Of a stretch of 64,000 nucleotides of DNA, positions 11,032 to 60,165 are shown piece after piece; position 1 is the first letter of the stretch; each line of letters opens with the position of its first letter. The stretch comes from an uncultured bacterium (lineage in GTDB: Bacteria; UBA8481). Where the stretch lies: the NCBI GenBank assembly GCA_964499705.1, contig CAZCME010000013.1, forward strand, positions 45,217 through 109,216, in the 5' to 3' direction. The notes beneath the pieces were generated by a model. It was not told where the DNA came from. It ran no database searches and saw only the letters and a program-made list of their open reading frames with translations. Both the position numbers and the translations under genes were made by a program.

Positions 11032-11046
11032 GTTCCGTCTTCCTCT

Positions 11047-12162: not shown

Positions 12163-12974
12163 CAGGTCGGCCCCGATATTCCGCCGTCCTTGCGGACGCG
12201 CCAGAAGTGCACCGCCATCATGATCATGATGACAAAGGGAAGACCGATGCAGTGGAGCACATAGAACCGCAGGAGCGTCGCTTCGCCGACGAACCTACCG
12301 CCGAGAAGCGCGAACCGGACGTCGGAACCCTGGTGGACGAAGTTGATGTCACCGAGCGCCAGGAACGCCGTTCCCGGGCCCTGCGCTCCCATGAACGGTG
12401 TCGCACCGCCCATGTTGGATCCGACCGTGATGGCCCAGATCGCGAGCTGATCCCACGGCAGGAGATAACCCGTGAAGGAGAGAAGCATGGTGAGAAGGAG
12501 GAGAACGACGCCGACGACCCAGTTGAATTCGCGCGGCGGTTTGTACGAACCGGTCATGAAGACACGGAACATATGGAGCCAGACGGTGATGACCATCAGG
12601 TGAGCGCCCCAGCGGTGAATCTCGCGCATGATCCCCAGCGGCACCTGTTCGCCCAGGTCGACGATGTCACCGTAGGCGTATTCGACGGTCGGGCGGTAAT
12701 AGAACATGAGGAGAATACCGGTGATGGTGAGGACGAGGAAGATGAAGAACGTGAGTCCTCCCATGCACCAGGTGTATTTCACCTTCACGGCGTGAGTCGG
12801 GAGCTGGACGGGATGGAGGTGCAGAAAGACGTTGTTCAAAACGACCATCATCCGGTCGCGCCGCGTGGAGGGCGGGCCGCCGCCCTGGCGAAAGAGCGAC
12901 CGCCAGATTGGCGAATCGGCGATATACTTCCACACATCCGCCGGAGTGATCATCTTCTTCTGTTCGTCAGCCAT
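12162..12974 (-). CDS. Cytochrome b N-terminal domain protein (b6-like)
   Basis: 270-aa ORF with haem-ligand-bearing helices ([31 protein letters not shown]) typical of cytochrome b/b6. Confidence 0.85.
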
Positions 12975-12994
12975 CGTTTACCTTCCTGTTGTCA

Positions 12995-19462: not shown

Positions 19463-20308
19463 TCAGCCGACCCGGCCGACGTCGTTGACGGCCTGACCGA
19501 GGAGCGTGTCATGGGTCTGGACAACCTTGGCGGAAGTCTCGTAGGCGCGCTGCGATTTGATGAGATCGATCATCTCGCGGACAAGATTGACATTGGATTG
19601 CTCGAGCATGCCGGTCCGGAGCTTGGTGCCGAAGAGAAGCTTCTGGGGAGGACCGGACTCGTCCGTGGCGCGAAAAAGGGTATACCCGACCTTTTCCAGG
19701 CCATGGACATTCTCGAAGGATACCAATCTCAGCGCGTCGGCCGTCACCGGATCCTGCCAGAGGTTGACGCCTTCTCCGGTGTAGGTCGGATTCGTGATGA
19801 TCCGACCGTCCGGTTCGAATCGGATATTGGAGGCGTCGACCTTCACGGGACCGTTTTCCCCGAGGACGAGGGCTCCAGCCTGCGTCGCGAGGTATCCTTC
19901 GGAATTGACGATGAAATTTCCGGCGCGCGTGTACATCTTGCCCTGGGGAGTCAGAACCTCGAAGAAACCATAGGATCGCGCCACGCCGGGGATGCCCTCG
20001 ATCGCCATATCGAAGAGATTCCCGGTGTTGATGGTAGCCGGAGAAACCTCGTGAGTGGTGACGATGTCGTCCACCTGGACGCCCGTTCCCACTCGTCCCA
20101 CCGGCGGAGTGAGATCGAATTCGCGCATCGGAGTCACGAGCTTTTCATCGTGCATCCTGTGGGCGAGCATGGACGGGAAATCGCGGTACACGACCGTATC
20201 CTGCTTGAAACCGACCGTGTTGCCGTTCGCGAGGTTGTTGGCGATGACTTCCATCTCCACGCCCCGCGCGATCATCGCCATCGCACCCGTATAAAGTCCT
20301 CGATCCAT
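19463..20308 (-). CDS. flgF: Flagellar basal-body rod protein (FlgF-like)
   Basis: 281-aa ORF; rod-protein N-terminal motif VIANNLANGNTVGFK and C-terminal MIDLIKSQRAYETSAKVVQTHDTLLGQAV. Confidence 0.85.
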   Translation of the reverse strand: MDRGLYTGAMAMIARGVEMEVIANNLANGNTVGFKQDTVVYRDFPSMLAHRMHDEKLVTPMREFDLTPPVGRVGTGVQVDDIVTTHEVSPATINTGNLFDMAIEGIPGVARSYGFFEVLTPQGKMYTRAGNFIVNSEGYLATQAGALVLGENGPVKVDASNIRFEPDGRIITNPTYTGEGVNLWQDPVTADALRLVSFENVHGLEKVGYTLFRATDESGPPQKLLFGTKLRTGMLEQSNVNLVREMIDLIKSQRAYETSAKVVQTHDTLLGQAVNDVGRVG

Positions 20309-23584: not shown

Positions 23585-23729
23585 TGGCAGTGAAACTTCT
23601 TACATAACAATTGCGGACCAGATAGATCCTGTATTATACTGGTTTCGGATAAAGGGCATCAGTCGTTACTGACCCTTATCCTTGTTCCAGGATTCCATTG
23701 ACTGTGAACAATATTGCATCGGAGCTGAA

Positions 23730-24788
23730 ATGAAGCGCGTCGAACCCGCCTTGGTCAACGTGAAATTCGCGAAATTCCCGACGCCAACTGCTGCCGTTCT
23801 TGAGCTGACGAACAGATGCAACGAACAATGCATTCACTGCATTCGCGAATCACCCGATCTACGATTCGACGACGAACTTGCGACCGCCGAATGGCTGAAG
23901 GTCGTTGATGATCTTGCGGACATCCGTACTTTTTCCGTATGTCTGACGGGTGGAGAGTGCACGATCCACCCCGGGTTCCTGGAAATCATCGACCGATGCC
24001 GAAGCCATCGCATTAATGTGTCGATAAAGACAAATGCACTTTCGTTGGCGCGAATCGCGCCGATGCTAGCGCGCAAGGGAGTCGGATTCATTGAAATCTC
24101 GCTGTACGGCGCGACACCGGAATCGCACGATCGGTGCACCCGGATTTCCGGTTCATTCCAGCGTCTCGTCGAGGGTGTCAAGGCGGCGAGAAAAAACGGT
24201 ATTCCAGTCTCCATGAACGCGATTGTCTTTCGATGGAATGCTCATGAGGCTCTTGCGATGCGCCGGCTTGGCCAGGAACTGGATTGCCCGATCAAACGCG
24301 ACTTCATGCTCTCGACCACCGATCTTGGCAGGCACCTCGATCTGGAATTGGTGACGTCTGCCCAGATTCGAGAAATCGAGTCGATCTGGCCCATGAACAC
24401 GCTGCCGGGCGCGCAGAACCGTCTTTCCCGGGTAAAAATCTGTACTCAGGGCATGAACACAGTCTGCGTAACCGCGCGTGGCGAAGTACTTTCATGCGTC
24501 ACGATCCGCAAGCCGCTCGGCAACGTCAGAAAAAATGGCCTCGCCGATACCTGGCTCACCACGACGGGAGGTCACAGCGGTGCAGCCCGGCGAGCGCATG
24601 ACGTGGACTACGGGAATTTCACTCGCTGCGAAGCGTGCAAGCATCTTCCGGTCTGCAGCGTCTGCCTGGGACAAAACTTCGCCGCCACCGGCAGCTTTTA
24701 CGAACCTCCCCTTGAAAGATGCTTTATTACCATGTCATTATTCGGTAACAAGGAAGGGATGGAAAATGGAAAGGAAGTCCATGCGTAA
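23730..24788 (+). CDS. Radical SAM enzyme with C-terminal SPASM/twitch-like cysteine cluster (putative peptide maturase)
   Basis: ORF 23682..24788 (TTG) trimmed to ATG 23730 with GGAG upstream. CNEQCIHC (Cx3Cx2C) radical SAM cluster near the N-terminus; C-terminal CEACKHLPVCSVC auxiliary-cluster motif. Confidence 0.8.
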   Translation: MKRVEPALVNVKFAKFPTPTAAVLELTNRCNEQCIHCIRESPDLRFDDELATAEWLKVVDDLADIRTFSVCLTGGECTIHPGFLEIIDRCRSHRINVSIKTNALSLARIAPMLARKGVGFIEISLYGATPESHDRCTRISGSFQRLVEGVKAARKNGIPVSMNAIVFRWNAHEALAMRRLGQELDCPIKRDFMLSTTDLGRHLDLELVTSAQIREIESIWPMNTLPGAQNRLSRVKICTQGMNTVCVTARGEVLSCVTIRKPLGNVRKNGLADTWLTTTGGHSGAARRAHDVDYGNFTRCEACKHLPVCSVCLGQNFAATGSFYEPPLERCFITMSLFGNKEGMENGKEVHA

Positions 24789-34826: not shown

Positions 34827-35849
34827 CTAAACGACTAACTCCTGCTGCGTCAATGTTGGAATGTTGGAGAATGTCCCCCTGATTGCTTCGGCAAGGGCTC
34901 CTTTGCGCCTGTCTTTTCGCATGCGAGAAACGATCATCGAATAATAACCATTCGGGTGGCGATCGCCGTCCTCATGCTGGATACGGTCGTAGGTCCAGCG
35001 GGCCAGCTCATGCGCAATGTAGATCGTGAGTTCGCGGTGCATCGCCTCGATCGACGACCATGCCTGGCGGCGCATTTCGGATGTGGCCATGACGAACCGG
35101 TCGGCCATCTGCTGAAGATCGCTCCAGGACCACGACACGGCGTCGCGGTCCATCGTGCGTCGCTTTCTGGTTTCTTCGAACCGCTGACGGCGTTCCGTCT
35201 GGAGTTCGATACGCTTTCGAAATAGATGCGAGCTCATGAAACGGCCGTTATGGCCCTCGCGAAACAGTGTTTCGTTGGATTCTGCGTTGAGTTCATTGAA
35301 CCATCTGTCCAATACGCCCAACTGTTTAACATGATCGAAGGAGGAGATGTTCTTTCCGAAGAGTTGCTCGGCGAGCAGATGCCGGTCGACGCGATTTCTC
35401 TGGGTTCCCATGCCCAGCATTTCCCGCGCACTGCACCAAGGATAAAGAAGCGGATCGCGTACGAAACCGGCACGGACTGGATTGAGGATGATGTAGGCGA
35501 CGACGGTTTCAAAGTAGGACTCCGTCTCGATGACGAGCGACTTCGATCTGCCCTGGAAGAGGTGGCCGGTCCGGTCGTGGCGTCGGTTGAGTTCCTGAGA
35601 GGCGCGCGTCAAAAATCGCCGCAGGAATTCCGAAATGTCGCCGCCGGGCGTTCGAAGGCAGAAATGAAAATGATTCGGCATGAGACAATAGGCATACGTG
35701 ACGACGCGAAACATCTTTGCCGACTCGAAATAGAGATCGAGAAATCGACGGTAATCGGACTCGTGCTGGAAGAACGGGTGCTTGTCGACGAAGCGATTGA
35801 GGACGTGGTAGACGGCGTCCTTGTAGGCGATGCGTGGACCTCTGGACAT
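34827..35849 (-). CDS. IS200-like Y1 (HUH) transposase, REP-associated tyrosine transposase (RAYT)-like
   Basis: 340-aa ORF; HUH motif CLMPNHFHFCL and tyrosine motif VAYIILNPVRAGFV align by eye with the PEHMHCIW and YIYINPVK regions of E. coli RayT; N-terminal AVYHVLNR. C-terminal codons read through a repeat copy. Confidence 0.75.
   Translation of the reverse strand: MSRGPRIAYKDAVYHVLNRFVDKHPFFQHESDYRRFLDLYFESAKMFRVVTYAYCLMPNHFHFCLRTPGGDISEFLRRFLTRASQELNRRHDRTGHLFQGRSKSLVIETESYFETVVAYIILNPVRAGFVRDPLLYPWCSAREMLGMGTQRNRVDRHLLAEQLFGKNISSFDHVKQLGVLDRWFNELNAESNETLFREGHNGRFMSSHLFRKRIELQTERRQRFEETRKRRTMDRDAVSWSWSDLQQMADRFVMATSEMRRQAWSSIEAMHRELTIYIAHELARWTYDRIQHEDGDRHPNGYYSMIVSRMRKDRRKGALAEAIRGTFSNIPTLTQQELVV
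34851..34878 (+). repeat. 28-bp REP-like repeat, copy 4
   Basis: Exact CAATGTTGGAATGTTGGAGAATGTCCCC; inverted partner of copy 3 with a 193-bp spacer; lies inside the last ~17 codons of the transposase ORF. Confidence 0.8.
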
Positions 35850-35860: not shown

Positions 35861-36202
35861 CTATCGGCTTGCGGTGCGGTCGAAATAGTCGCGGACGATG
35901 TTACGGAAGCGTGTGGATCGATGAGGAAGTTCGGCGAGCCATCGCATGTATGTCGGGTCGCGCCGGCTGATCTCCTCGAGCGACCGGCCGCGATGCTTGC
36001 CGAACGCGATTCGATGCGACCTGCCGTGGGGAATCAAACCGGATCGCTTCCGTTCGAAGTTATCGCTGCAGGCGGCTGAATAGACCTCGTCGGCCTTCCG
36101 GAAGGCTTCGTCTTCCGATAGGCCGATACTTCTGAAAATTCCGAATGCACAGGCGCGATCCTGCTCCGGGCTGGTCACTTTCCGCCGATCCTGTTTCGCC
36201 AT
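35861..36202 (-). CDS. Small protein with exodeoxyribonuclease X C-terminal-like (DUF3820-like) motif
   Basis: ORF 35861..36373 trimmed to Met 36202 (MAKQDRRKVTSP...); IAFGKHRGRSLEEISRRDPTYMRWLAEL resembles the FGKYKG...DP.YL.WL motif of that family (recalled, not searched). Confidence 0.45.
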   Translation of the reverse strand: MAKQDRRKVTSPEQDRACAFGIFRSIGLSEDEAFRKADEVYSAACSDNFERKRSGLIPHGRSHRIAFGKHRGRSLEEISRRDPTYMRWLAELPHRSTRFRNIVRDYFDRTASR

Positions 36203-36286
36203 TGTGGTCTCCTTTCGTGATTGAGTGTCATACAGAGCAGAAGTTGTGCCGGCAGAAGTGCTTATTTTCCAGCAAGAGCATATCCG

Positions 36287-36332
36287 GAAAAGTGTCGAAT
36301 CCTGGACACATGTCCAGAATTCGACACTTTTC
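36287..36332. promoter_or_regulatory. 46-bp imperfect dyad symmetry, candidate operator
   Basis: GAAAAGTGTCGAAT-CCTGGACA-CA-TGTCCAGA-ATTCGACACTTTTC; 14-bp outer arms perfect, inner arms 7 of 8; located ~85 bp upstream of the small gene preceding the transposase. Confidence 0.3.
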
Positions 36333-36551
36333 ACGCACAGGATTCTCAGGATCAACAGGATGAAAACCGGCAAATCATATATTTTGAACGTTCATCCTAT
36401 CCTGTGGATCCTGCTCAATATTGAAGCGAAAATAATATTTGCAGTGGCTATAGAGCTCGGGTATTGACTACGGGGACAGATATTTCTTGGATTGGAGCGC
36501 AGCCAGGATTTTGACTGCCGGCTGCAAAAATGTGTTCTATGATGAAAATGG

Positions 36552-37496
36552 ATGAAAATGGGCCGTCCAATCACTTTTCAGTTGTTGATTGGATCTATTC
36601 TTTTACTTTTTGCCGACGAAGGTCCCGCCGGAATCTGCCTTCTCTATTTCAGTCAGAACATCGCTACTTTTGGTCGAATTGCGTTTCATTCACGATCCAG
36701 ACGAATGATCGCGCTCGGCCTCATTCTTATTTTGGTTCAGATATTTTTTTGCATGAAACTTTTCTTTGCTCTCACGCTAGACACATTCGAGTTGCTTCTT
36801 CGCAACAACTTTATTCCTGCCGTTTTCGTTTTCTTCCTCGAAGGTGCGACAGTCGATGAGGCAATGGCGAAGCGCGCCGGCTTTTGGATCTTTCTAATTA
36901 ACTGGGCGATTCTCTCGGCCGGTATGATTGCGTTTGCTCGACTAAAAGCTGAGCACCACCTTCAATTCGCTATCATTGCGTTGGTAGCTCTCTGCAAAGG
37001 ACTGTCGCAACTGGCGCCAACATTGCGTGAAAACCGCAAGCGAACTCCGTTTGGGCACGCGGCATACGGGGTACTCGTTCTGATAATGCTATTCGGTTTC
37101 TATCACACAATTGGAAGCGAGCGTCCATCTGTTGATTACGCGGGCGCGCTTGAACGTGCATTAACGACAGGCGATTCAGAACAAGCGATTGCGCTTTTGC
37201 AATTAACCAATCCTTCCGGGCAAATCGTGGTCGCCCACCAGGTCGACGGCACACCTGCAATCGAGCTCGCGCTGCAATCTCAGTTGCCGCAGGTTCGCAA
37301 AGCGGCAATTAGAACGTATGAGGTCTGGATGATCAACGCCGTCGATCGGGATCCATCCGATCGTGATGACCTTGAACGTCGCTACAAATCTCACATGACC
37401 CCGCTACTGTCCGATCCTGTATCAAGAATTCAAGAACTGGCGAGGGAAGCATATGAAAATCCAAAAGGCTATTCGGGATGGAGAAGCCCGTTCTAA
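36552..37496 (+). CDS. Hypothetical membrane protein with C-terminal helical-repeat region
   Basis: 314-aa ORF in an AT-richer stretch; several hydrophobic helices then a soluble C-terminal part (ALLQLTNPSGQIVVAHQVDGTPAIELALQSQLPQVRKAAIRTYEV); start uncertain. Confidence 0.45.
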   Translation: MKMGRPITFQLLIGSILLLFADEGPAGICLLYFSQNIATFGRIAFHSRSRRMIALGLILILVQIFFCMKLFFALTLDTFELLLRNNFIPAVFVFFLEGATVDEAMAKRAGFWIFLINWAILSAGMIAFARLKAEHHLQFAIIALVALCKGLSQLAPTLRENRKRTPFGHAAYGVLVLIMLFGFYHTIGSERPSVDYAGALERALTTGDSEQAIALLQLTNPSGQIVVAHQVDGTPAIELALQSQLPQVRKAAIRTYEVWMINAVDRDPSDRDDLERRYKSHMTPLLSDPVSRIQELAREAYENPKGYSGWRSPF

Positions 37497-37627
37497 TTTT
37501 CGTGACTGTGAAAGGAGATATTCTCTACATTCCTACATTTAAATAAATGAGTTGCAGAAGCGTCATTCCGGCGAATACAAAATTTGCATTTGCTCTGAAC
37601 AACTGCCTTCTCTAACTCCATCATCCT

Positions 37628-37655
37628 CAATGTTGGAATGTTGGAGAATGTCCCC
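37628..37655 (+). repeat. 28-bp REP-like repeat, copy 5
   Basis: Exact CAATGTTGGAATGTTGGAGAATGTCCCC ending 14 nt upstream of the STAS gene ATG. Confidence 0.8.
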
Positions 37656-37669
37656 CTATACTCCCTCTC

Positions 37670-38035
37670 ATGGAATTCGATCGCATACCGGGGGACACCG
37701 TCACTCGCTTCATTCTCTCAGGCTCCATGGAGACGGGGCGGTTCGAGCGGTTTCGCTTCGAGGCCAAGGATGCCGTCATCCCGCAGTCGCCCCACCTGAT
37801 GCTCGATGTGTCCGGCGTCGACTTCATCGATTCGTGCGGGATCGGGACGATGATCGAGCTCTTCAAGCACACGAAACTCCACGGCGGGGAGCTCATCATC
37901 GCGGGAATGCAGGAGCACCTCGTCAAGCTCTTCCAGATGCTGAAGCTCGATACGTTCTTCACCATGGTGCCCGACTTATCCGCCGGAGAAGCTCTGCTGG
38001 CGAAGATTCGCCGCAGGGATCAGGGCGTGTCATGA
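37670..38035 (+). CDS. STAS-domain protein (anti-sigma-factor antagonist-like)
   Basis: 121-aa ORF; LMLDVSGVDFIDSCGIGTMIELFKHTKLHGGELIIAGMQEHLVKLFQMLKLDTFF is a SpoIIAA/STAS pattern. Confidence 0.75.
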   Translation: MEFDRIPGDTVTRFILSGSMETGRFERFRFEAKDAVIPQSPHLMLDVSGVDFIDSCGIGTMIELFKHTKLHGGELIIAGMQEHLVKLFQMLKLDTFFTMVPDLSAGEALLAKIRRRDQGVS

Positions 38036-42590: not shown

Positions 42591-44138
42591 ATGAAATGGA
42601 ACAGCTACGATTTCGTTCTCTCCGCTGACGCCCAGTGGAACGGCGCGAGCCAGGATTATATCCGCGACCTCCGGGAGTATCGCCGCGCCGATCTGAAGAG
42701 CGAATACCAGACGATCGTCTCTCCGGAACTGCATCGACTGTTGCCTCGACGGGCCGGACGAACGTTCGAGTCGGCCGACCAGAGCACATGCGTCCGGGTC
42801 AGGGCGATCGACCAGCGGATCGGATTCCCGGCGGAGTTCTTCCAGTGCATGCTCCAGAAGCCCCAGCACTACGTCGACTACCACAGCCGGCATCCGGCAT
42901 TCATGAGCCTCGTGCGGAACAATCACGCGAAGCTGAACGAAATCCTGGACGCGGGATTCCGCGCCTATTACGCGCGCGGCGTCTCTCCCGATCATGCGAT
43001 CTACGACGAGATCGACCGGCTCTTCCGCAGTGAAGACGCGGAAATGCGCGGGATGCTGAAGGGATACCTCACGCAGAAGCCGCAGCGCGCGATCTTCCTC
43101 ATCGACGTGGAGTCGGCACCGGCATCGCTGCCGTGGCTGGAGCCCGTCTACCAGACGATCAAGCACCACCTGCTGAACTGGGGGATCGACCACATCGCGG
43201 TCCTGACCGGAAAAGGTTATCACTTTGTTACGCAGGTTCCGCTGTATGCGGAACGCGGCATCCACGACGGCAAGGCGCATCTGAACTATGCAATGCTGAA
43301 CCTCATGGCGCGCGGCGGTCCCGTCAAACCCGAGACGCTCGACGGGCTCGTGTCCGTCCGCTGGGGCAGCCGTAAGCAGTCTCCGACGCCCCTCCTGTCG
43401 CAACGCTCCTACCAGGGCATGTGGAAGCTGCAGCAGTTTTTTCTCGTCAACATCGCCGACGACATCCGGCGCCAGCTCTCTCGCGCGAGGATGAATCCGT
43501 GGGTCAACTTCAGCGACACGGAGAAGGAGACCGTCATCCTGGACACGACGAGCATGCTGCGGCAGGTGGAGATGGGCGTCTTCGGCAGCGTCGGAAGCCT
43601 GTACAACAAGAAGAGAAATCCGCCGAAGGTCCGGATCATCCGCAGCCGGAACGGGCACGAATTCTTCCGGAACGACCTGAACTGGATGCTCTCCACGCGA
43701 ACCGATCTCGGCGCCGTGAAGCACCACCTCGTCCACACCGGTGGCCGCATCCCCGACGGCTCGCGTGGCATCGAGAACATGATCCACGGGTATGATTCCA
43801 GCCGGATGAAACGCGAACTGCACGACCCCTGCGACCGACCGCTCTCGCCGGAATGGATCTCCGAGATCTTTCAGTCGAACTACCGCATCATCTGGCAGCG
43901 GTGCCCGGAGATCCTCTCCCACATCGAGCACGCCCAGCCGAATTTCCTGAATCCGTCATGTCTCTCTTATGTCTATCGCCGCCTGGCCGCGCGCGGATTC
44001 TCCGTGCCGGAGATGATGACGATCACGAAGGCGGTGTACTGCGATCCGGCCAAGAACGTTCAGATCGACGGCAAGTATTCAAAGGACGAATGGTGCCGGT
44101 GGCCCGAGCTGCTGCTGGGAGAGTGGTTCAAGGGGTAG
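42591..44138 (+). CDS. Hypothetical protein, 515 aa, no recognisable domain
   Basis: Long ORF with genome-typical codon usage and non-repetitive composition; several His-rich segments (WGIDHIAVLTGKGYHF, HHLVHTGGRIPDG) but no motif I can assign. Confidence 0.55.
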   Translation: MKWNSYDFVLSADAQWNGASQDYIRDLREYRRADLKSEYQTIVSPELHRLLPRRAGRTFESADQSTCVRVRAIDQRIGFPAEFFQCMLQKPQHYVDYHSRHPAFMSLVRNNHAKLNEILDAGFRAYYARGVSPDHAIYDEIDRLFRSEDAEMRGMLKGYLTQKPQRAIFLIDVESAPASLPWLEPVYQTIKHHLLNWGIDHIAVLTGKGYHFVTQVPLYAERGIHDGKAHLNYAMLNLMARGGPVKPETLDGLVSVRWGSRKQSPTPLLSQRSYQGMWKLQQFFLVNIADDIRRQLSRARMNPWVNFSDTEKETVILDTTSMLRQVEMGVFGSVGSLYNKKRNPPKVRIIRSRNGHEFFRNDLNWMLSTRTDLGAVKHHLVHTGGRIPDGSRGIENMIHGYDSSRMKRELHDPCDRPLSPEWISEIFQSNYRIIWQRCPEILSHIEHAQPNFLNPSCLSYVYRRLAARGFSVPEMMTITKAVYCDPAKNVQIDGKYSKDEWCRWPELLLGEWFKG

Positions 44139-47613: not shown

Positions 47614-49650
47614 ATGAGAATTCTCCGTTCGTGGCTGTCGGAATTCGTCGACCTCGACAGCATCCATGATGACGACACGCTCGCGGCGCTCTTTTCCCGC
47701 GCGGGCATCGAGGTGGCGGCGCGCATGCCCTCGGAAACCGGCACGATCTTCGAGGTCGAGGTGACGGCCAACCGACCGGACCTGCTCTGCCACAGGGGCG
47801 TCGCCCGGGAACTGGCCGCGCTGATGGAGACTCCGATGAAGCCGTCGACGGCCGGAGCCGAACTCGATTCCGGAGGCACCTATCCGATCCAGATTCTCGC
47901 TCCCCAGTGTTCCCGTTACAGCGGCGTCGTCCTGAGAAACATCACGGTGACGGAGGCGCCGTCGTGGATGGCCGATCGGATCAGCGCCATGGATCTGAAA
48001 CCGATCTCCAACGTCGTCGACGCCACCAACTACGCGCTCTTCGAGCTGAATCATCCGCTGCACGCCTTCGATCTCGACAAGCTCGACGGCGAGATCCAGG
48101 TCCGCCACGCGCGCGACGGAGAACGGATCGCTCTCCTCGACGGAACCGACCGGCTCCTGACGCGCGACGACCTCGTGATCGCGGATTCGAGGCGCGCCGT
48201 CGCCCTCGCGGGCGTGATGGGCGGCGCGGACACGGCCGTGACGACGGAGACGAAGAATCTCCTCCTGGAGGCCGCCTGGTTCGATCCGGCCGCCGTCCGG
48301 AAGACCGCGCGACGGCTCGGCATCTCCACCGATTCGTCGTATCGCTTCGAGCGCGGCGCCGATCCGGAGGGAACGATCCCCGCGTTGAAACTGCTCGTCT
48401 CGCTCATCCAGAACACGGCCGGAGGCGAGATCGAGCATGGCGTCCACGATGTCCGTCGCGAGCCGGTGCAGGCGCGATTCGCCGCGATGCGGCCCGGAAG
48501 AATCCGGGACATGCTCGGCCATGACGTGGAGCGATGGGAAGGCAAGCTCAACGCCATCGGCGTCACCGTCGCCGGCGGCCAGGCCATCCTGCCTTCATGG
48601 CGTCCCGATCTCTCGCGGGAAATCGATCTCATCGAGGAACTCGCGCGCCTCGACGGATACGACAAGATCCGAGCGACGCTCCCGTTTCGCGCGGGGCGCA
48701 CGCGCGATTTCCATTACGAGCATGCCGATGCGTCGCGGTATCGCTCCCTGAAGGAATCCATCGCCGATTTCGCGACCGCGCAGGGATTCGATCGATGCCT
48801 CAATTTTTCCTTCGATCGCCCCGAAGGAGGCGACGTCGAGCTTCTCAATCCCATCAACGCCGAAGAATCCGTGCTCCGCGGCTCGCTCCTGCCGTCCCTC
48901 CTCCGGACCGCCGGACTTCGCGCCGACCGCGCGGGCGAGAATTCCGCGTTTCTTTTCGAGATGGACAAGATCTTCAGAAACGGGGATGCGGCGCCCGAGG
49001 AGCGGGATTGCGCCGCGTTCCTTTTGTCCGGCCGCGCGGAGGATCGCCGCTATGACGGCCGTGCGGCCGACGAGATCACGATCGATCATCTGCTCGGAAT
49101 CCTCCGCGCTCTCTCGAACACGCTCCGGGTGCGGATCGAATATCGCCCTGGAAATTCCGACGGTCTCTTCCAGGCTCGATTCGCCGGAGCCCTGTTCCAG
49201 ACGTTCGCCGCGATTCTCGCGAACGATGCTCCCTGCGGAATCGCGGGAGAAATCCGGTCGAACGGAGGAGCGAAAGTCTACGGCGCGGAGCTCGATCTGT
49301 ATGCGCTGCACGGGATCGTCGCGGAGTTCGCGCCACCGCGCTACGAGCCACTGCCCCGCTATCCGGGTTCTACGAGGGATCTGGCTTTCTGGATCGCTTC
49401 CGACACGCTTGTCGGTTCCCTCGTGGATGCCGCGCGCGCGGCCGGAGTGGATATCCTGGAGAGTTGCGAGATATTCGACGTCTTCACGGCGAAGGCCGCC
49501 GCCGGCGCGGTCCCGAGGAAATCGGTCGCGCTCCGGCTGAGCTTCCGTTCGAAAGACCGGACGCTGACGGAGGAGGAAGTGGCGGAGGGCACGCGTCGGA
49601 TCAAGGAGAGGATCTGCGCCGCATGCGGCGGGGAGCTTCGCGCGTCATGA
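47614..49650 (+). CDS. pheT: Phenylalanine--tRNA ligase beta subunit (short form)
   Basis: 678-aa ORF with B3/4 and B5-like regions and C-terminal FDVF...RLSFRSKDRTLTEEEV anticodon-binding-like end; directly follows pheS. Confidence 0.85.
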   Translation: MRILRSWLSEFVDLDSIHDDDTLAALFSRAGIEVAARMPSETGTIFEVEVTANRPDLLCHRGVARELAALMETPMKPSTAGAELDSGGTYPIQILAPQCSRYSGVVLRNITVTEAPSWMADRISAMDLKPISNVVDATNYALFELNHPLHAFDLDKLDGEIQVRHARDGERIALLDGTDRLLTRDDLVIADSRRAVALAGVMGGADTAVTTETKNLLLEAAWFDPAAVRKTARRLGISTDSSYRFERGADPEGTIPALKLLVSLIQNTAGGEIEHGVHDVRREPVQARFAAMRPGRIRDMLGHDVERWEGKLNAIGVTVAGGQAILPSWRPDLSREIDLIEELARLDGYDKIRATLPFRAGRTRDFHYEHADASRYRSLKESIADFATAQGFDRCLNFSFDRPEGGDVELLNPINAEESVLRGSLLPSLLRTAGLRADRAGENSAFLFEMDKIFRNGDAAPEERDCAAFLLSGRAEDRRYDGRAADEITIDHLLGILRALSNTLRVRIEYRPGNSDGLFQARFAGALFQTFAAILANDAPCGIAGEIRSNGGAKVYGAELDLYALHGIVAEFAPPRYEPLPRYPGSTRDLAFWIASDTLVGSLVDAARAAGVDILESCEIFDVFTAKAAAGAVPRKSVALRLSFRSKDRTLTEEEVAEGTRRIKERICAACGGELRAS

Positions 49651-49889
49651 GCGTTGTGAATCTCGACGATCTCGAGAATGCCGTGGAGCGTCTGATCGGC
49701 GCGCTCGTCGCGGAACGGTCGCGGAAGAAGGAACTGATGATCCGGCTCGCGGAGCAGGAAGCGCGCCTGGAGAAGGAACCGTTCGAGGTCGAGACGCTGC
49801 GGAAGGAAAACGCCCGCCTGAAGCGGAACTGCTCGATCGCGGCGGAGAAGATCGAGGAGCTCCTCGCCAAAATGGATACGCCCACATGA
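49647..49889 (+). CDS. Small coiled-coil protein (ZapB-like), hypothetical
   Basis: ATG 49647 overlaps the pheT stop; 80-aa heptad-rich MSVVNLDDLENAVERLIGALVAERSRKKELMIRLAEQEARLEKEPFEVETLRKENARLKRN...; the longer track ORF 49464..49889 is out of frame upstream. Confidence 0.45.
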   Translation: MSVVNLDDLENAVERLIGALVAERSRKKELMIRLAEQEARLEKEPFEVETLRKENARLKRNCSIAAEKIEELLAKMDTPT

Positions 49890-50167
49890 AGCAGACGGTC
49901 CATGTCATGGGGCAGAACGTGACGGTCAACACCGCCTCCACCGATCCCGTCTATGCTCACGATGTGGCTCAGCACGTGAACCAGGTCTCCGCTCGTATTG
50001 CGGCCCAGCTTCCGAAGATCTCCCGGGAGATGCTCGCCATCATGACCGCGATGGAAATATCGGATGAACTCTTCCGGCAGACATCCAGCGCCCTTCCGGA
50101 AGGCCGCCGGCCGAAGGCGCGGATCGAGACCCTCCTGAAGCGGATCAACGACGCGATAGGAAACTGA
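49886..50167 (+). CDS. zapA: Cell division protein ZapA
   Basis: 93-aa ORF; VHVMGQNVTVNTASTDPVYAHDVAQHVNQ...MLAIMTAMEISDELF fits the ZapA pattern; start overlaps the upstream stop. Confidence 0.65.
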   Translation: MKQTVHVMGQNVTVNTASTDPVYAHDVAQHVNQVSARIAAQLPKISREMLAIMTAMEISDELFRQTSSALPEGRRPKARIETLLKRINDAIGN

Positions 50168-50225
50168 TCTCTTCGGTTGCTAACCCCTTGACCATCACGC
50201 GCCGGATGATTACGCTCGCGGCAGG

Positions 50226-51605
50226 ATGAATCATTCGGGCCGATCGCTTCTCCTTCTCTTCCTCCTGATCCTCTTCTCCTCCTGTACCCCCACAAGGCTC
50301 GCTGTCACTTCGACGCCGACCGGCGCCGTGGAAATCGACGGTCGCGAGCGAGGCATGACTCCTGTCACCATCGAAACCGAGTCGGGCCGGACGCACGACA
50401 TCGTCGTTTCGGCGGCGGGATACGAGAACTGGCGTTCCCGCGTCCGCGTCGAGCGGGACCAGGAAGTTCATGCGATCCTGACGCGCACACCTCCGCCCGT
50501 GACCGTCAAGGAAACCGTCGAAGTGCCGACCGCGTCCCGGACAAGGCTCGCGGTCTTCGTCGAACCGGACGGGGGCGAGGTCTGGGTCGATGGAAAGAGT
50601 CGCGGCATGGCCCGGGCCGACCGGCCTGTCGAGGTCGTGTACACGACGAATCCGACGCTGGCCGACGTGGTCGTGACGCGCGAGGGCTTCCGGAAATGGA
50701 CGCGGTCCGTGGATCTCGAATCGGGCCGCGAGAACCGCGTCATCATCCGCATGGAACCGCTCGCGGCCTGGTACACGTTCACCTCCGACGCGGAGATGCT
50801 CCGCAACACCGTCAGCCAGGTCGTATCCTCCACGGCGAACCTGCCATCCCTCGACCGATCTTCGAAAATCGCCGTGCTCTCCATCGCTCACGGCGAAGGC
50901 TCCGACGAGCCGCTGCAATCGCTCCTCGACGACGCCTTCATAACCACGCTCGCCCAGGCGGGATTTTCTCCGGCGGAAAACGACGACCACATGCTGGTGC
51001 AGCTGGCGCATTCCGCTTCCGGAGATTCCATCCCCATCAACGTGATCACGGACAACAAGGGCCCTGACCGGCCGTTCGTTTACGACGCGGAAATCGCGAC
51101 GAAGAGAACCGAGCGCGCGGTGGACGCCCTCCCGGTCACGATCACATCGAGCGTGAGAACGACAACCGAGGATGACGACGTGACGACGGAATCGACGACG
51201 ATCCGGACGGAAACGGTGATGAAGGAGCGGACGCGGCAGATTCCCATCACGGCTTACATTCCCACGGCCGACCAGTTCCTGGCGTATCGCGTCCTGGATT
51301 GCGGGATCTCCAAGACGCCGATCGAGGAGGGAGAAGCGCGCGAGGAGAACATGCTGTATCGCCGCGCCGAATTGCGCGTTCACCTGCGCGTCATCAACGC
51401 CAAGACAGGGATCATCACGTGGGCCGGATTCCTGACCGGGAGAACCGCGGATGAAATTCCCGTGCGCGTCAGCATGGACCTGGCGAATCCGCCGAACCGC
51501 ATGTATGCCGATCCGCTTCCGGACTCGTGGCAGAAATTGCGTCACCCTCCGTCCCGAAGGGTGAACATGGATGTACCGGCCGTCGTCTCCCCCACGCCGC
51601 GCTGA
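50226..51605 (+). CDS. PEGA-domain lipoprotein, paralog 1
   Basis: Signal/lipobox-like N-terminus (LLLLFLLILFSSCTPTRLA) then two PEGA-like beta modules (AVEIDGRERGMTPVT..., EVWVDGKSRGMAR...) and a C-terminal domain sharing blocks with the downstream paralog (KGPDRPFVYDA). Confidence 0.6.
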   Translation: MNHSGRSLLLLFLLILFSSCTPTRLAVTSTPTGAVEIDGRERGMTPVTIETESGRTHDIVVSAAGYENWRSRVRVERDQEVHAILTRTPPPVTVKETVEVPTASRTRLAVFVEPDGGEVWVDGKSRGMARADRPVEVVYTTNPTLADVVVTREGFRKWTRSVDLESGRENRVIIRMEPLAAWYTFTSDAEMLRNTVSQVVSSTANLPSLDRSSKIAVLSIAHGEGSDEPLQSLLDDAFITTLAQAGFSPAENDDHMLVQLAHSASGDSIPINVITDNKGPDRPFVYDAEIATKRTERAVDALPVTITSSVRTTTEDDDVTTESTTIRTETVMKERTRQIPITAYIPTADQFLAYRVLDCGISKTPIEEGEAREENMLYRRAELRVHLRVINAKTGIITWAGFLTGRTADEIPVRVSMDLANPPNRMYADPLPDSWQKLRHPPSRRVNMDVPAVVSPTPR

Positions 51606-51612
51606 ACTTTCT

Positions 51613-53151
51613 TTGAAAGTACTGCATCGCTCTCTTCCGGCACTTCTTCTTCTCGCGGCGTCATGCACTCCCACGCAACTCGCGATCTACTCCCGGCCGG
51701 GCGGAGCGGAGGTTTACATCGACGACAGGCTGTATGCGCGGACGGTGAACGAAGCGACGCCCGTGACGCTGGAAGTGCGGAGCGGAAAATATGGAGTGAG
51801 CATTCTGAAGGACGGGTATCACCCCTGGGCGCGGACCGTGGACGCCAAGCCCTACTCCGTCACTCCCGTCCTGGCCGACCTGGTCCCGATCGAACCCATC
51901 CGGACCTATGTGCCGATCGGGGCCGTCGAGATCCGCATTCATCCGGCGGGAGCGCGCGCCTGGCTAGACGGACAACTCCTGTCACAGCTACCGGAGAACG
52001 CGGGAGAACCCTTCATCATCGAGGGGTTGACGCCGGAGGCGCACGTCCTCCGGGTCGAACGGCAGGGATACGAGTCGGAGGAAACCCGGTTTGAAATCTT
52101 CTCGCAGCTCGTTTCGAACGTCACCCTGAGGCTGGAGCCTTTGAAGCCGTACTATGTCTACCCTTCGAACGACGATCTCCTGAGGAACGCGGCGGTACGC
52201 GCGCTTCGGGGAATCGCTCATCTGCCCGGGATGCGTTCCACGAAGACGATCGGCCTTGTGAGCCTTGACGGGGAAGCGGACGAACTGGACGGGCTCCGGC
52301 CGCTCGTGGAGGACGTGATGATCGCGGAGCTCGCCCGCAACGGCCGGGGCGTGGTCGAAAGGGAGAATCATCTCCTCGTGCGCCTCGCGCAGGAATCGGC
52401 GCGTTCCGATTCCTTCTCGCTCGAAGTGCTCACGAAGCACGGCGGGCCCGACCGGCCGTTCCTGTATGACGCGCGCCTCAAGTCAGCCGCGGACGCGATC
52501 GCGATGCTGGCGACGGACACGGCGGGGCGGGCGCGGCAGATCATCGTCCGCAATCGCGTCGAAGAACCGCTCGCGCATCTGAAGACCGCGGACCAGATCA
52601 TCGGCTATCGCATCGTGGAACGTTCGCTGCGATCCGATCCGATCGACGATCCCGGCTCGCCCGAGCCGATGATCCGGCGCGAAGCGATCATCCGCCTCTT
52701 CATCCGCTTCCTCGACGCGAAAACCGGAATTGTGCAATGGGCGGAACGTTTCGAGGCGTCAGTCGCGGACCGTGTGCCGCAGCGTGTGTACCGCTGGCTC
52801 GAGCATCCGCCCTCGCGCACGTACGCCTACGAGATGAAGCAGAAGCCCGGAAGGGACGCGCGCGAATCCCGGGATACCGCGGCGGCATCGCCCCCGATCG
52901 AATATTTCACCGAGGACGACCTGGGCGGCATCGGCGACCAGGATATCCTCTTCTGGTACTGGCGGAACATGGGCGAAGCCTATCTCCGTGCCGGCCGCTT
53001 CGGCGACGCCGCGCGCCACCTGCGGGAGGCCGTGGCGATCCGGCCGCTGGACTACGAATCAAGGATGCTCTACGCCGAATCGCTCCTGAAGAACGGTCAA
53101 TTGAACGAGGCGGGCCGTGAATACATCCAGGCCATGCGACGCATGGAATGA
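51613..53151 (+). CDS. PEGA-domain lipoprotein, paralog 2, with C-terminal TPR-like tail
   Basis: Track ORF 51571..53151 overlaps paralog 1; in-frame TTG at 51613 gives lipoprotein N-terminus LKVLHRSLPALLLLAASCTPTQLA. Shares CTPT(R/Q)LA, PEGA modules and HGGPDRPFLYDA with paralog 1. Confidence 0.6.
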   Translation: MKVLHRSLPALLLLAASCTPTQLAIYSRPGGAEVYIDDRLYARTVNEATPVTLEVRSGKYGVSILKDGYHPWARTVDAKPYSVTPVLADLVPIEPIRTYVPIGAVEIRIHPAGARAWLDGQLLSQLPENAGEPFIIEGLTPEAHVLRVERQGYESEETRFEIFSQLVSNVTLRLEPLKPYYVYPSNDDLLRNAAVRALRGIAHLPGMRSTKTIGLVSLDGEADELDGLRPLVEDVMIAELARNGRGVVERENHLLVRLAQESARSDSFSLEVLTKHGGPDRPFLYDARLKSAADAIAMLATDTAGRARQIIVRNRVEEPLAHLKTADQIIGYRIVERSLRSDPIDDPGSPEPMIRREAIIRLFIRFLDAKTGIVQWAERFEASVADRVPQRVYRWLEHPPSRTYAYEMKQKPGRDARESRDTAAASPPIEYFTEDDLGGIGDQDILFWYWRNMGEAYLRAGRFGDAARHLREAVAIRPLDYESRMLYAESLLKNGQLNEAGREYIQAMRRME

Positions 53152-53257: not shown

Positions 53258-54427
53258 ATGTGTATTTTGGGATTTGGATTAATGTACACAGTCGAAGTGC
53301 GCGACGCGAAGGCGGGCATGACGCTCTCGCGGCCGGTCTTCACCCGGAACGGAAACCTGCTCCTCGATGCCGGCACCCGCCTCTCCGATCATACCCTCGA
53401 CCTGCTCGATCTCTGGGGCATCTTCGACATCCAGGTCGATTCGATCGACTCGCCTTCCGGTCACGCGCCCGCTCCCCGGCAGAAGAAAAAGTTCGATCCT
53501 GTGAAGCGCGAGGCCGAGAAGAAGCGAGTGGAGGATGTGGGCGGCTGGGTGCGCGATGAGATCGAGGGTCTCATGAAGCAGATGAATTCCGGGGGAAGGG
53601 ACATCGACATGGAGCGGCTCAAGGGAGTCGCGGAGTCGATCGTGGAGGAATCCATGAAGGACAACGAGCTGATGGTCTCCCTGACGACGCTCATGGACTT
53701 CGACAGCTATCTCTTCTCGCACGCCGTCCACGTCTCGATTCTCTCCGTCGTGATCGGCATCGCGATGGGCCTCACGCAGAAGGAAATCCAATCGCTGGCC
53801 ATCGGAGGAGCGCTCATCGATCTCGGAATGCTTAAGGTGGACCGGAAAATATGGGATAAGGACGGCGTCCTGTCGGAAGCCGAGTTCAACTTCGTGAAAC
53901 AGCATCCGCTCCTGGGATTGAAGGACGCCGAGCCGCACTGCCGGGGCGATGTGGCTTCTCTCCGGATCATCGCGGAGCATCACGAGCGGCTGGACGGATC
54001 GGGCTATCCCCGGAAGCTGCGGGACAAGGCGATTCATCCTCTGGCGAAGATCGTCGCCGTCTGCGACATCTATGACGCGATGCAGCAGCCCCGCGCCTAC
54101 AGGAAGAAGTGGCTCCCCTACCAGGTCATGGGCCATCTGCTCGTCTCGTCCACGGAGACCCTGGACGCGCAGGTTGTGAAGACTTTTCTCCGCACGATGT
54201 CCGCGTATCCCATCGGATCGTTCGTGAAGATGGATACCGGCCAGGTCGGCGTCGTCGTCTCCTCCAATCCCGCCAGCCCGATCCGACCTGTCGTGAAGCT
54301 CTTCCTGCTGGCTTCGGGAGAGACCATGGAGAAGCCGGAATTCGCGGATCTTTCCGCCGATAAGAGATTCATCATCGGACCGATCGATCCCCGCCAGATC
54401 CACGTCAAACCCTTCGATGTTTTCTAA
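53258..54427 (+). CDS. HD-GYP domain phosphodiesterase (c-di-GMP-type)
   Basis: HD motif (HAVHVS) and EHHERLDGSGYPRKL GYP signature. Alternative start at Met 53282 (MYTVEVRD...) would place the inverted heptamer segment in the 5' leader. Confidence 0.8.
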   Translation: MCILGFGLMYTVEVRDAKAGMTLSRPVFTRNGNLLLDAGTRLSDHTLDLLDLWGIFDIQVDSIDSPSGHAPAPRQKKKFDPVKREAEKKRVEDVGGWVRDEIEGLMKQMNSGGRDIDMERLKGVAESIVEESMKDNELMVSLTTLMDFDSYLFSHAVHVSILSVVIGIAMGLTQKEIQSLAIGGALIDLGMLKVDRKIWDKDGVLSEAEFNFVKQHPLLGLKDAEPHCRGDVASLRIIAEHHERLDGSGYPRKLRDKAIHPLAKIVAVCDIYDAMQQPRAYRKKWLPYQVMGHLLVSSTETLDAQVVKTFLRTMSAYPIGSFVKMDTGQVGVVVSSNPASPIRPVVKLFLLASGETMEKPEFADLSADKRFIIGPIDPRQIHVKPFDVF

Positions 54428-55966: not shown

Positions 55967-57933
55967 AGAAGGAGGATATTCGAAACCAGCTGCGAGGATT
56001 GCAGGCTCTGCAGGGGCTCGCGCCGTCGTTCCTCGACGAGATCGCGGAACTGGGGGTGGAAAGAACATACGCGCGCGATTCGATCGTCATATCCGAAGGG
56101 CAGGTCGTGGAACATTTCTTCGTGATACTCGGAGGACGGCTGCTGGCTCACTATGGCGACAAGGTTGTTTCGCACATGGAGCGAGGCGACACGTTCGGCC
56201 AGCTGAGCCTGATGGCGGAAGTGCCGTCGCTCGTCACCGTGAAGGTGCGGCACGACGCGCGGCTCCTGCACGTTCCGCGCAATCTCTTCCGGAAAGCGCT
56301 GGCATCGAGCCCGGAGTTCGCGGCGCAGATCTTCAAGGGTTCCGCCGCGCGCCTCGCGACGATCAACCAGGAGACGAGGACGCGCCAGCCCGTCATCGTC
56401 GCCGTGCATTCGGCGCCCGCGGGAGTCGGCAAGACGAAGTTCGCCATCAACCTGGCGTGCGCCATGGCCGCGGAAAATGCCGGCCGCGTGCTTCTTGTCG
56501 ATGTCGCCACGGAGAAAAAGCGCTTCATCGACATCTTCGGTTTCGGAGGATCTCTGCCTCTTGTCGATCTGCGGGACATCGAGACATCGAGCCGGGACGC
56601 GGTGCGGGAAAAAACGCGAAAGCACGATGCCGGGTTCGAGATACTCCGCCTGGCCCATCGCGGGAGCTCCGCGAGCGCGGACCAGACGCGCGAGGACGAG
56701 GCGGTCGCGCCGCTGCTTTCATCGCTGTCCCGGACATTCCATTACATCGTGACCGATCTGCCTCCGGTCATGGACGCGACCGTCTGGAAATTCCTGACGC
56801 ACGCCGATACCGCGATCATCCTGACGTCGGCCGAGCCGGTCCATCTCGCGCAAACAGCCAATCTCCTCGGAAAGCTGCCCGGCAAGGCCAGGGTCCTTGT
56901 GACGCGGGCCACGACCGAGCTCGAAGCCAAACGAGAAACGATCGACACCGCGCTCGGACAGCGCGTGGACGAATTCCTCGAGGAGCTCCCGGAAGGCGAT
57001 GAAATCGCTTTCATCTCCCGCCCGGGATCCCGCTACGCCTCGGCGGTACGCCGCCTCGCTCGCGGCATCCTCGGCCGGCTCGTGGGCCTGGCGCTCTCCG
57101 GAGGCGCCGCGAGAGGGATGGCTCACATCGGCGTCCTGAAGGTGCTGGAAGAGGAAGGCATCCGGCCCGATATCATCGCCGGAACTTCGATGGGGGCCCT
57201 GATCGGCGGGATGTGGGCGTCCGGGAGCAACGCGGCCGTATTGGAAAGGATCGCGCGGAGGATCCGACGGAGCGAGTTCTTCAGCATCTTCGACCTGGCC
57301 CTGCCGCCTTCGTCAGGGCTCCTTCGCGGCACCAAGGTCGATCACTTCATCCGCGGCGTCTTCGGCCAGAAGCGCTTCTGCGACCTTCTGATTCCGCTCC
57401 GGGTCATCGCCACCGACATCGACACGGGAGATCACGTCGTCTTCGATCACGGTTCCGTGGCCGACGCCGTCCGGTCTTCCGTGGCCATCCCCGGAATCCT
57501 GAAGCCGAACATCGTCGACGGCAGGCGCCTGACGGACGGCGCCGTCATCGCTCCCGTTCCCGTCGATACGCTGCGGGAGGCGGGCGTGTCCCGGATCATC
57601 GCCGTCAACGCGATTCCCACCGCCGAATGCTTCCGCGATTACAGCCGTTCGGCGATCCAGCCCGCGGCGGGACGGAGCGATTTTCTCGCGCGCCTCTTCC
57701 ATTTCAGCACCCGCGACGTGCCAAGCCTTCTCGATATCATCGTCCGCTCGAACCAGTTCATGGAGGCGGCGATCGCGGAACATTCCTGCCAGGGCGCCTC
57801 GGTCATCATCCGCCCGTGGCTCCCGGAACTGCACTGGATGGATTTCGACTCCGCGCCGCGCTTCATCGAGTCCGGCGTCAAGGCCGCCAGGGAGGCGATG
57901 CCGGAGATCAGGGAGATGATGAATGGGGGATAA
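55963..57933 (+). CDS. Three-domain fusion: cNMP-binding domain / ParA-MinD-like P-loop domain / patatin-like phospholipase
   Basis: ATG 55963 overlaps the comM stop (ATGA); the upstream part of track ORF 55522..57933 is out of frame. cNMP-binding (ISEGQVVEHFFVILGGRL...GDTFGQLSLM); P-loop AVHSAPAGVGKTKFAINLA with Walker B IVTDLPP; patatin motifs SGGAARG, GTSMG, TDGAV. Confidence 0.75.
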   Translation: MKKEDIRNQLRGLQALQGLAPSFLDEIAELGVERTYARDSIVISEGQVVEHFFVILGGRLLAHYGDKVVSHMERGDTFGQLSLMAEVPSLVTVKVRHDARLLHVPRNLFRKALASSPEFAAQIFKGSAARLATINQETRTRQPVIVAVHSAPAGVGKTKFAINLACAMAAENAGRVLLVDVATEKKRFIDIFGFGGSLPLVDLRDIETSSRDAVREKTRKHDAGFEILRLAHRGSSASADQTREDEAVAPLLSSLSRTFHYIVTDLPPVMDATVWKFLTHADTAIILTSAEPVHLAQTANLLGKLPGKARVLVTRATTELEAKRETIDTALGQRVDEFLEELPEGDEIAFISRPGSRYASAVRRLARGILGRLVGLALSGGAARGMAHIGVLKVLEEEGIRPDIIAGTSMGALIGGMWASGSNAAVLERIARRIRRSEFFSIFDLALPPSSGLLRGTKVDHFIRGVFGQKRFCDLLIPLRVIATDIDTGDHVVFDHGSVADAVRSSVAIPGILKPNIVDGRRLTDGAVIAPVPVDTLREAGVSRIIAVNAIPTAECFRDYSRSAIQPAAGRSDFLARLFHFSTRDVPSLLDIIVRSNQFMEAAIAEHSCQGASVIIRPWLPELHWMDFDSAPRFIESGVKAAREAMPEIREMMNGG

Positions 57934-60092: not shown

Positions 60093-60165
60093 GGGCGCGT
60101 AACTCAGCGGCTAGAGTGCCACCTTCACACGGTGGAAGTCGCAGGTTCAATCCCTGCCGCGCCCA
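60093..60165 (+). tRNA. tRNA-Val (anticodon CAC)
   Basis: 73-nt cloverleaf folded by hand: acceptor GGGCGCG/CGCGCCC, D-stem ACTC/GAGT, anticodon stem CCACC/GGTGG with loop TTCACAC (anticodon CAC), T-stem GCAGG/CCTGC with loop TTCAATC, discriminator A; CCA not encoded. Confidence 0.85.

Follow-up and report, generated by a model that had tools for sequence, protein, structure and literature searches.

Within a 64,000-nucleotide stretch of DNA from an uncultured bacterium of the Candidatus Hydrogenedentota (positions 45,217 to 109,216 of contig CAZCME010000013.1, assembly GCA_964499705.1; hereafter the window), two adjacent genes, here called A and B, encode a pair of phylum-restricted, anciently duplicated PEGA lipoproteins, whose shared C-terminal domain is a new and unnamed offshoot of the CsgG/LpoB/DUF4136 group. 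We are highly confident of the anatomy of both proteins, which comprises their paralogy, domains, lipobox and fold class. A is identical to an NCBI entry named 'PEGA domain-containing protein [Candidatus Hydrogenedentota]', which derives from a metagenome-assembled genome (MAG).

Judged by their sequences, A and B are true paralogs. BLASTP pairs them with 128 identities over 420 residues (30%, with 51% positives; E 5e-53), and since the aligned region starts at the lipobox cysteine and takes in the whole of the shared C-terminal domain, it is not limited to low-complexity sequence. Aligned jointly, 28 A- and B-type proteins share 31 invariant columns, 25 of which fall into the C-terminal domain. 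A preliminary description of this DNA had reported two adjacent lipoproteins of the same architecture as a duplicated envelope module of unknown function, and as far as it goes this is correct: both open reading frames (ORFs), the two PEGA pairs and the two lipoboxes are in place, and the blocks CTPT(R/Q)LA and GPDRPF(V/L)YDA are common to both proteins. Its further shared block, HPPSR, has to be withdrawn, as it occupies non-homologous positions. B's EHPPSRTYA pairs with ANPPNRMYA in A, and the HPPSR of A itself follows some 20 residues later, as a second copy of the motif inside the A-specific tail.

Proteins of this architecture, which is uniform throughout, were recovered in only 11 A-type and 17 B-type clusters by a word-indexed search, and matching lengths of the longest contigs indicate that several A/B pairs share a contig. 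In a neighbour-joining tree of the C-terminal domain, A-type and B-type proteins form two sister clades, to each of which every sampled lineage contributes one protein. It follows that the duplication is older than the sampled diversity and that both copies were retained. As far as this tree goes, the duplication is ancient rather than recent, and non-redundant.

In both N-termini, a basic n-region is followed by a Leu-rich core and then by a lipobox that fits signal peptidase II. In A, this reads MNHSGRSLLLLFLLILFSS-C20, with R6, a core from L8 to F17 and the cleavage motif F-S-S-C20, and in B it reads ...LPALLLLAAS-C, with K2/R6, a core from L8 to A16 and A-A-S-C18 when counted from a TTG start, or C32 from an upstream ATG. 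The lipobox cysteine is conserved in at least 90% of the A and B orthologs in our alignments. We judged the signal peptides by direct reading of the sequence, asking for a positive n-region and a hydrophobic h-region, with a lipobox [LVI..][AST..][GAS]-C in the first ~35 residues; on this basis both proteins read as signal peptidase II substrates, and lipidation is predicted for both. Concerning the start of B, the preliminary description had assumed a TTG codon that overlaps the end of A, which mixes two candidates. The overlap of 35 nt belongs to the ATG at 51571, which has a weak purine-rich GAAGGG 9 nt upstream. The TTG at 51613 is indeed a candidate, and lies 7 nt past the TGA of A (51603-51605) with no overlap. 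No Shine-Dalgarno-like sequence precedes this TTG, and it is the start chosen by NCBI for a 98% identical MAG protein (P0012). Either start gives B (526 aa from ATG, 512 aa from TTG) a valid lipoprotein signal peptide and the identical mature protein.

Each mature protein carries two bona fide PEGA domains (PF08308), with Pfam scores of 64.2 and 58.3 bits against a cut-off of 20.8, and their beta-sandwich models match transthyretin-like sandwiches. The combination of PEGA with this C-terminal domain is rare, and the PEGA domain itself has no established function. The TPR-like tail that had been noticed in the second gene is real and confined to B: its last ~70 residues form helix-turn-helix repeats recognised by TPR models (TPR_19, 29.7 bits against 25; TPR_2, 28.5 against 27), and in the structure model they are a generic TPR. 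Neither A nor B matched a catalytic family in Pfam or NCBIfam. The AlphaFold2 models have a mean pLDDT of 76.8 (A) and 79.0 (B), with high values in the PEGA domains and the core of the C-terminal domain.

The C-terminal domain and its family

The C-terminal domain, which measures 230-255 aa in the two proteins, has no match in Pfam or NCBIfam, either in A or in B. A search of 1.84 billion cluster representatives with a hidden Markov model (HMM) of this domain returned 324 matches at E <=1e-3, of which 155 reach E <=1e-10. Most of them are proteins of 200-450 aa in which the domain begins right behind the signal peptide, and 99 of the 146 best family members have a lipobox within the first 45 residues. 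Where a source name is given, these proteins are called 'CsgG/HfaB family', 'DUF4136' or 'LpoB'. A profile built from A- and B-type sequences themselves (A5) matches the domain of A with 325 bits and that of B with 352 bits over its full length, and both proteins carry the family motifs, namely an N-terminal helix (S/T)(D/N)xxLLR, ER(D/E) past strand 2, YR, and R...R..DA.TG...WA. Independent distant members score against the C-domain profile down to E 1e-11 and below. Forty members scanned against NCBIfam yielded no family, and all PDB chains searched with the profiles A5 and A6 gave no meaningful match.

The relation to known families comes from intermediate sequences and from the predicted structure. 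Among the 40 members, seven have weak CsgG matches in Pfam (best 9e-07) and five have weak DUF4136 matches. One protein, P0039, matches the family profile at E 4.4e-27 and also Pfam CsgG with 28.8 bits against a gathering score of 20.8, and therefore provides a transitive link of the family to the CsgG superfamily. Structure prediction of the shared domain gave a CsgG/LpoB/DUF4136-type fold: Foldseek retrieves CsgG chains at a probability of 0.9-0.99, besides FlgT and LptE, and the domain shows the LpoB/TolB-N-like arrangement. These data support the assignment of the shared C-terminal block as a divergent, previously undescribed member of the CsgG/LpoB/DUF4136-type lipoprotein fold, at the edge of the CsgG/HfaB-LpoB-DUF4136 group. 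DUF4136, GNA1162 (DUF799) and PelC themselves have no significant sequence match to A or B. Their families are without PEGA or TPR additions, and A/B in turn do not lie in a pel operon or in another one for polysaccharide.

At their C-terminus, 39 of the 146 best members are extended by at least 120 aa, and 26 of these 39 proteins end in Phe or Trp. The ends show an alternating hydrophobic pattern before the aromatic residue (...GFKF, ...YRF, ...YQF), like an outer-membrane beta-signal, and the extension-bearing member P0045 has a weak OMP_b-brl match. The extensions span 120-215 aa (for example in P0045, P0057, P0067 and P0074 among P0035-P0172), and neither Pfam nor NCBIfam has a model for this class of fusion between a lipoprotein and a small barrel. 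The wider family is associated with the outer membrane. An N-terminal lipid anchor together with a C-terminal outer-membrane barrel places the intervening domain at the periplasmic face of that membrane.

Fusion of PEGA to the domain is limited to 5 of the 146 best members, which are the Hydrogenedentota type and one single-PEGA protein. In two unrelated lineages (L015, L005), a stand-alone member directly precedes a gene for a secreted, membrane-anchored protein that starts with PEGA. The products of these downstream genes (6778-8385 in L015, 6955-8766 in L005, and also, cut, in L016 and L017) start with a signal peptide and a PEGA-like N-domain, continue through a low-complexity or coiled-coil stretch and close with Gly-rich transmembrane segments at the C-terminus; their PEGA-like N-domains are 37% identical between two phyla (E 9e-12). 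The downstream PEGA-bearing protein is a possible conserved partner of the lipoprotein family. At a further locus (L018), a stand-alone member precedes genes for two TPR proteins and a lytic transglycosylase, with mreB and an LCP gene upstream. A second family copy was sought beside the distant members and none was found. By a Rosetta-stone argument, these fusions and neighbourhoods weakly suggest that the C-terminal domain, PEGA and TPR modules work together.

Gene order around the pair

The window represents a plain chromosomal housekeeping context. A scan of the genome collection with a strict peptide pattern returned four loci. Two other Hydrogenedentota contigs (L001, L002) have the same gene order as the window: infC, rpmI, rplT, pheS, pheT, an 80-aa coiled-coil gene, zapA, A, B, a gene for an HD-GYP-type protein, yifB, and a cNMP-binding/patatin gene. 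The coiled-coil ORF upstream of zapA (49647-49889) has a sub-threshold ZapB match only. A and B are closely spaced, with a gap of 7 nt or an overlap of 35 nt in the window depending on the start of B, a gap of 23 nt in L002 and an overlap of 1 nt in L011. In 'Ca. Hydrogenedentes CG07_land_8_20_14_0_80_42_17' (CG07), A and B are found on separate scaffolds and neither follows zapA: A sits between a DUF1015 gene and purN, and B comes after an MNT/HepT toxin-antitoxin pair and before yifB and the patatin gene. The linkage to zapA and HD-GYP is conserved synteny and not an operon requirement, and because it is broken in CG07 these neighbours are weak functional evidence.

The pair had been placed between cell-division and c-di-GMP turnover genes. 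The flanks are as described, with zapA (E 1.1e-12) on one side and the HD-GYP-type gene on the other; turnover is doubtful, because this HD-GYP neighbour has a degenerate HD dyad. It retains HHE(R)xDGSGYP, and the dyad reads ID in the window (53258-54427, + strand) and VD in L002 (orthologs at 11042-12235 in L002 and 11185-12330 in L001). Going by these residues, the protein may be non-catalytic, perhaps a receptor, rather than a c-di-GMP phosphodiesterase. In CG07, the interval between B and yifB lacks the HD-GYP gene. The last gene of the conserved order (55987-57933, + strand) combines a cyclic-nucleotide-binding domain, a ParA/MinD-like P-loop (AAA_31) and a patatin phospholipase in one conserved protein, with orthologs in L001, L002 and L010, and it is linked to yifB and B even where A has moved.

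Concerning regulatory elements, a scan from pheT to the patatin gene found no promoters or terminators, and between zapA and A there is no 6S or other RNA (Rfam) and no alignable conserved element, either in the window or in L001 and L002. This spacer (50168-50225) measures 59 nt here against about 250 nt in L001 (7741-8000) and L002 (7751-8000), and contains TTGACC (50188-50193) and, 17 nt further on, TACGCT; the scan had not reported this weak promoter-like pair.

Possible roles of the pair

In our best reading, which infers the heteromer, its membrane and whatever partner or role there may be, A and B would form a non-enzymatic heteromeric scaffold or adaptor at the periplasmic face of the outer membrane; to this reading we assign a probability of roughly 0.45. 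The structural relatives of the C-terminal domain are non-enzymatic envelope lipoproteins, and A and B would be placed at this membrane face because they are homologous to the barrel-fused family members. Here, the inner leaflet of the outer membrane would carry A and B together. Following the lipid-modified cysteine almost at once, the two PEGA domains would serve as a semi-rigid spacer, and the CsgG/LpoB-like domains would provide both the contact between A and B and that to a partner, via the GPDRPFxYDA loop and conserved Arg, Asp and Glu residues. The TPR of B could act as an adaptor that recruits a further protein, and a candidate ligand for it would be the conserved C-terminal tail of A.

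Several properties are consistent with such an assembly. Both genes persist in every sampled lineage, even in CG07 where they are unlinked, and elsewhere they are adjacent or nearly coupled in translation. The GPDRPF(V/L)YDA loop is invariant but predicted with low confidence, which would be typical of a segment that becomes ordered only upon binding; in A, P283, F284, Y286 and A288 are invariant in both paralog clades, and the pLDDT falls below 50 at residues 253-292. Besides, each clade has features of its own, a hairpin insertion and a basic tail (ending in PRVR in most orthologs) in A and the TPR in B, and such a complementary specialisation fits a heteromer. The hairpin is modelled as two strands (residues 289-314 and 319-344; pLDDT ~57-76). 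At its tip, most A-type orthologs (P0002-P0006, P0008, P0009) carry one or two cysteines beside acidic residues (DDCC, GNDC, DPCC, ENC; columns ~340-345 of alignment A2), and the tip of the window's A reads EDDD, without cysteine.

Several points weigh against the scaffold. The membrane assignment depends on homology to barrel-fused relatives, and the threonine behind the lipobox cysteine follows the E. coli sorting rule, which may be invalid in this phylum. The most conserved motif, GPDRPF(V/L)YDA, lies in a low-confidence part of both models, and with about a dozen A/B pairs available, there are too few for a co-evolution analysis. Finally, the neighbourhoods of the distant members are heterogeneous: PEGA is found in 2 of ~9 (a count that stems from four loci, of which L016 and L017 duplicate L015), TPR in one and Peptidase_C14 in two, and four have uninformative neighbours.

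Among the alternatives, it is unlikely, if the most serious objection, that A and B are independent paralogs which do not interact, serve different partners or conditions and lie side by side as a leftover of tandem duplication. The unlinked genes of CG07, the clade-specific features and a mutual identity of just 30% would agree with this. However, both copies are retained one-to-one in all sampled lineages, co-expression is suggested by their close spacing or overlap in most genomes, and the same 25 positions of the C-terminal domain are invariant in both clades. Since the original description of PEGA concerned cell-surface and S-layer proteins, surface lipoproteins acting as adhesins or S-layer anchors also come to mind. 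We consider this very improbable, since the C-terminal domain typically stands upstream of an outer-membrane beta-barrel and behind an N-terminal lipid anchor, and is thus periplasmic, no genes for surface-lipoprotein export (Slam or similar) lie near A/B, and the structural relatives LpoB, PelC, GNA1162, the CsgG core and LptE all face the periplasm.

The remaining alternatives transfer the function of a named relative. LpoB activates the cell-wall synthase PBP1B in E. coli and Salmonella, PelC funnels polysaccharide and CsgG forms secretion pores. After the model of LpoB, A/B would be anchored in the outer membrane and activate or modulate the peptidoglycan synthases of the division site, with the PEGA pair in place of the LpoB linker as a trans-periplasmic spacer and the TPR of B resembling the modules of CpoB or LpoA. 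The match to the LpoB fold, the synteny with zapA and the neighbours at L018 speak for this, and yet it appears improbable. Neither A nor B matches Pfam LpoB or TIGR02722 (E <=1 in Pfam, <=0.01 in NCBIfam), and hhalign of the family profile against the single E. coli LpoB sequence, a weak template, gives ~5% probability and aligns the signal peptide alone. To our knowledge, the UB2H domain of PBP1B, which LpoB targets, is confined to gammaproteobacteria; no such partner is known for A/B, and the window contains no PBP gene. The zapA linkage is lost in CG07, and Foldseek finds the LpoB fold in many functionally unrelated lipoproteins. The architecture differs as well: the C-terminal domain of A/B has roughly double the size of LpoB's and contains 16-residue strands and a large insertion, A and B form an obligate paralog pair of which one carries TPR, and instead of the long disordered Pro-rich linker between lipid anchor and globular domain of LpoB (PMC4632607) they have two folded PEGA domains with an 18-residue Pro-rich linker between them.

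A pore after the model of CsgG, in which an A/B ring would send beta-hairpins across the outer membrane to export a polymer or protein, seems hardly credible to us. It would draw on the weak to significant Pfam CsgG matches in the family, the Foldseek hits to CsgG chains and the long predicted beta-hairpin of A, and on further likeness: both are lipoproteins with a ~250-aa domain, the same alpha/beta core and an R..(V/I)....TG strand-turn-strand motif, joined by the transitive sequence link, and CsgG itself forms a nonameric 36-stranded barrel (PMC7304575). However, PF03783 has no hit in A or B, and hhalign against the single E. coli CsgG sequence, again a weak template, gives ~5% probability and aligns R..V....TG only. 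In CsgG, the two transmembrane hairpins are the segments flanking this strand. Comparing them by inspection, with the strand set against CsgG residues 171-191, we find in A an acidic loop EEGEAREEN (10-12 residues) on one side and a direct strand-to-helix connection on the other, and A's own insertion is charged on both faces. A was therefore rejected as a member of the CsgG pores, which have two amphipathic transmembrane beta-hairpins per subunit. A scan for hairpins of alternating hydrophobicity was discarded, as it did not flag the CsgG positive control itself. CsgG and HfaB also lack PEGA at the N-terminus, and their operon partners csgE/csgF or hfaA/hfaD are replaced at the A/B locus by zapA, HD-GYP, yifB and patatin.

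A bolder version of the scaffold may be added, which we regard as rather unlikely: A/B, hung from the outer membrane, could be the two subunits of a hetero-oligomeric ring or a trans-periplasmic tether peculiar to Hydrogenedentota. They would then represent a new functional branch within the CsgG/LpoB group, one that couples the outer membrane to peptidoglycan synthesis or division. It presumes a phylum without the proteobacterial Lpo and CpoB factors, in which the C-terminal domain is fused to PEGA spacers and a TPR adaptor.

Coordinates, remaining window and significance

Table 1. Features of A, B and the flanking genes in window coordinates.
Feature	Coordinates	Strand	Basis
Gene A, lipoprotein of 459 aa: signal peptide, PEGA, PEGA, CsgG/LpoB-like domain, conserved basic tail	50226..51605	+	ORF listing, ortholog alignment
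A, signal peptide and lipobox (LFSS-C20; Cys codon 50283-50285)	50226..50285	+	Sequence reading; Cys near-invariant among orthologs
A, PEGA domain 1, residues 24-86	50295..50483	+	Pfam PF08308; beta-sandwich model, pLDDT >90
A, PEGA domain 2, residues ~105-176, behind Pro-rich 18-residue linker	50538..50753	+	Pfam; AlphaFold2 strands 107-175
A, C-terminal alpha/beta domain, residues 178-432, unnamed lipoprotein family	50757..51521	+	
A, most conserved motif GPDRPFVYDA, residues ~279-288, in low-confidence loop	51060..51095	+	Alignment, AlphaFold2
A-specific Thr-/charge-rich insertion, residues 289-344, modelled as long beta-hairpin; much shorter in B	51090..51257	+	Alignment, AlphaFold2
A-specific conserved tail, consensus PLPDxWQ+LRHxPxR...PRVR; PTPR in the window's A	51522..51602	+	Ortholog alignment; unstructured in model
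Gene B, lipoprotein: signal peptide, PEGA, PEGA, CsgG/LpoB-like domain, TPR tail	51571..53151	+	ORF listing, homologs, alignment
B, alternative TTG start and lipobox (LAAS-C; Cys codon 51664-51666)	51613..51666	+	P0012 start MKVLHR; Cys conservation >=90%
B, two PEGA domains, residues ~36-104 and 117-188 (ATG numbering)	51676..52134	+	Pfam, AlphaFold2 model
B, C-terminal alpha/beta domain, paralogous to that of A	52138..52839	+	Alignment, profile match
B, two TPR repeats (four helices)	52936..53142	+	
zapA (context), 59 nt upstream of A	49886..50167	+	Pfam ZapA E 1.1e-12; same order in L001, L002
HD-GYP-type gene with degenerate HD dyad (context)	53258..54427	+	Pfam HD_5 E 3e-21; motif check

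Apart from the pair, some features of the window can be recorded. A 515-aa ORF (42591-44138, + strand) with a strong coding signature (GC3 0.84) has no Pfam match, and L001 and L002 contain a 537-547 aa gene in the matching position upstream of infC, likewise without Pfam matches. An IS200-like Y1 transposase ORF (34827-35849, - strand) lies beside a stretch of lower G+C at 36000-38000 (0.50 against ~0.60-0.64 elsewhere), and there is a second such stretch at 22000-24000; these stretches may be insertions. A respiratory cluster (8164-13897, - strand) encodes a 954-aa multi-haem cytochrome c with FixO, Cytochrom_C and CBB3-type domains, together with an unannotated 370-aa ORF, a cytochrome b and a Rieske protein. 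Judging from a flagellar rod gene of the FlgF/G type (19463-20308, - strand), the organism is probably flagellated. The sole Rfam match in the window is a tRNA gene (60093-60165, + strand).

The pair is a lead on the envelope organisation of Hydrogenedentota; it overturns nothing and opens no long-standing question. Since no family member comes from a cultured model organism, the practical value lies mainly in annotation. The more general product is the delineation of an unnamed family of ~324 lipoprotein clusters, often barrel-fused and now and then joined to, or neighboured by, PEGA and TPR. Neither Pfam nor NCBIfam offers a model for this family and no structure of it has been solved, and it merits a database entry. 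If the ring or tether should prove true, this family would represent a widespread, unrecognised class of outer-membrane-anchored periplasmic adaptors. If the scaffold holds, the pair would show how the space beneath the outer membrane is organised in an uncultured phylum of which little is known, through reuse of a fold that is seen in LpoB for synthase activation, in PelC for polysaccharide and in CsgG for pores.

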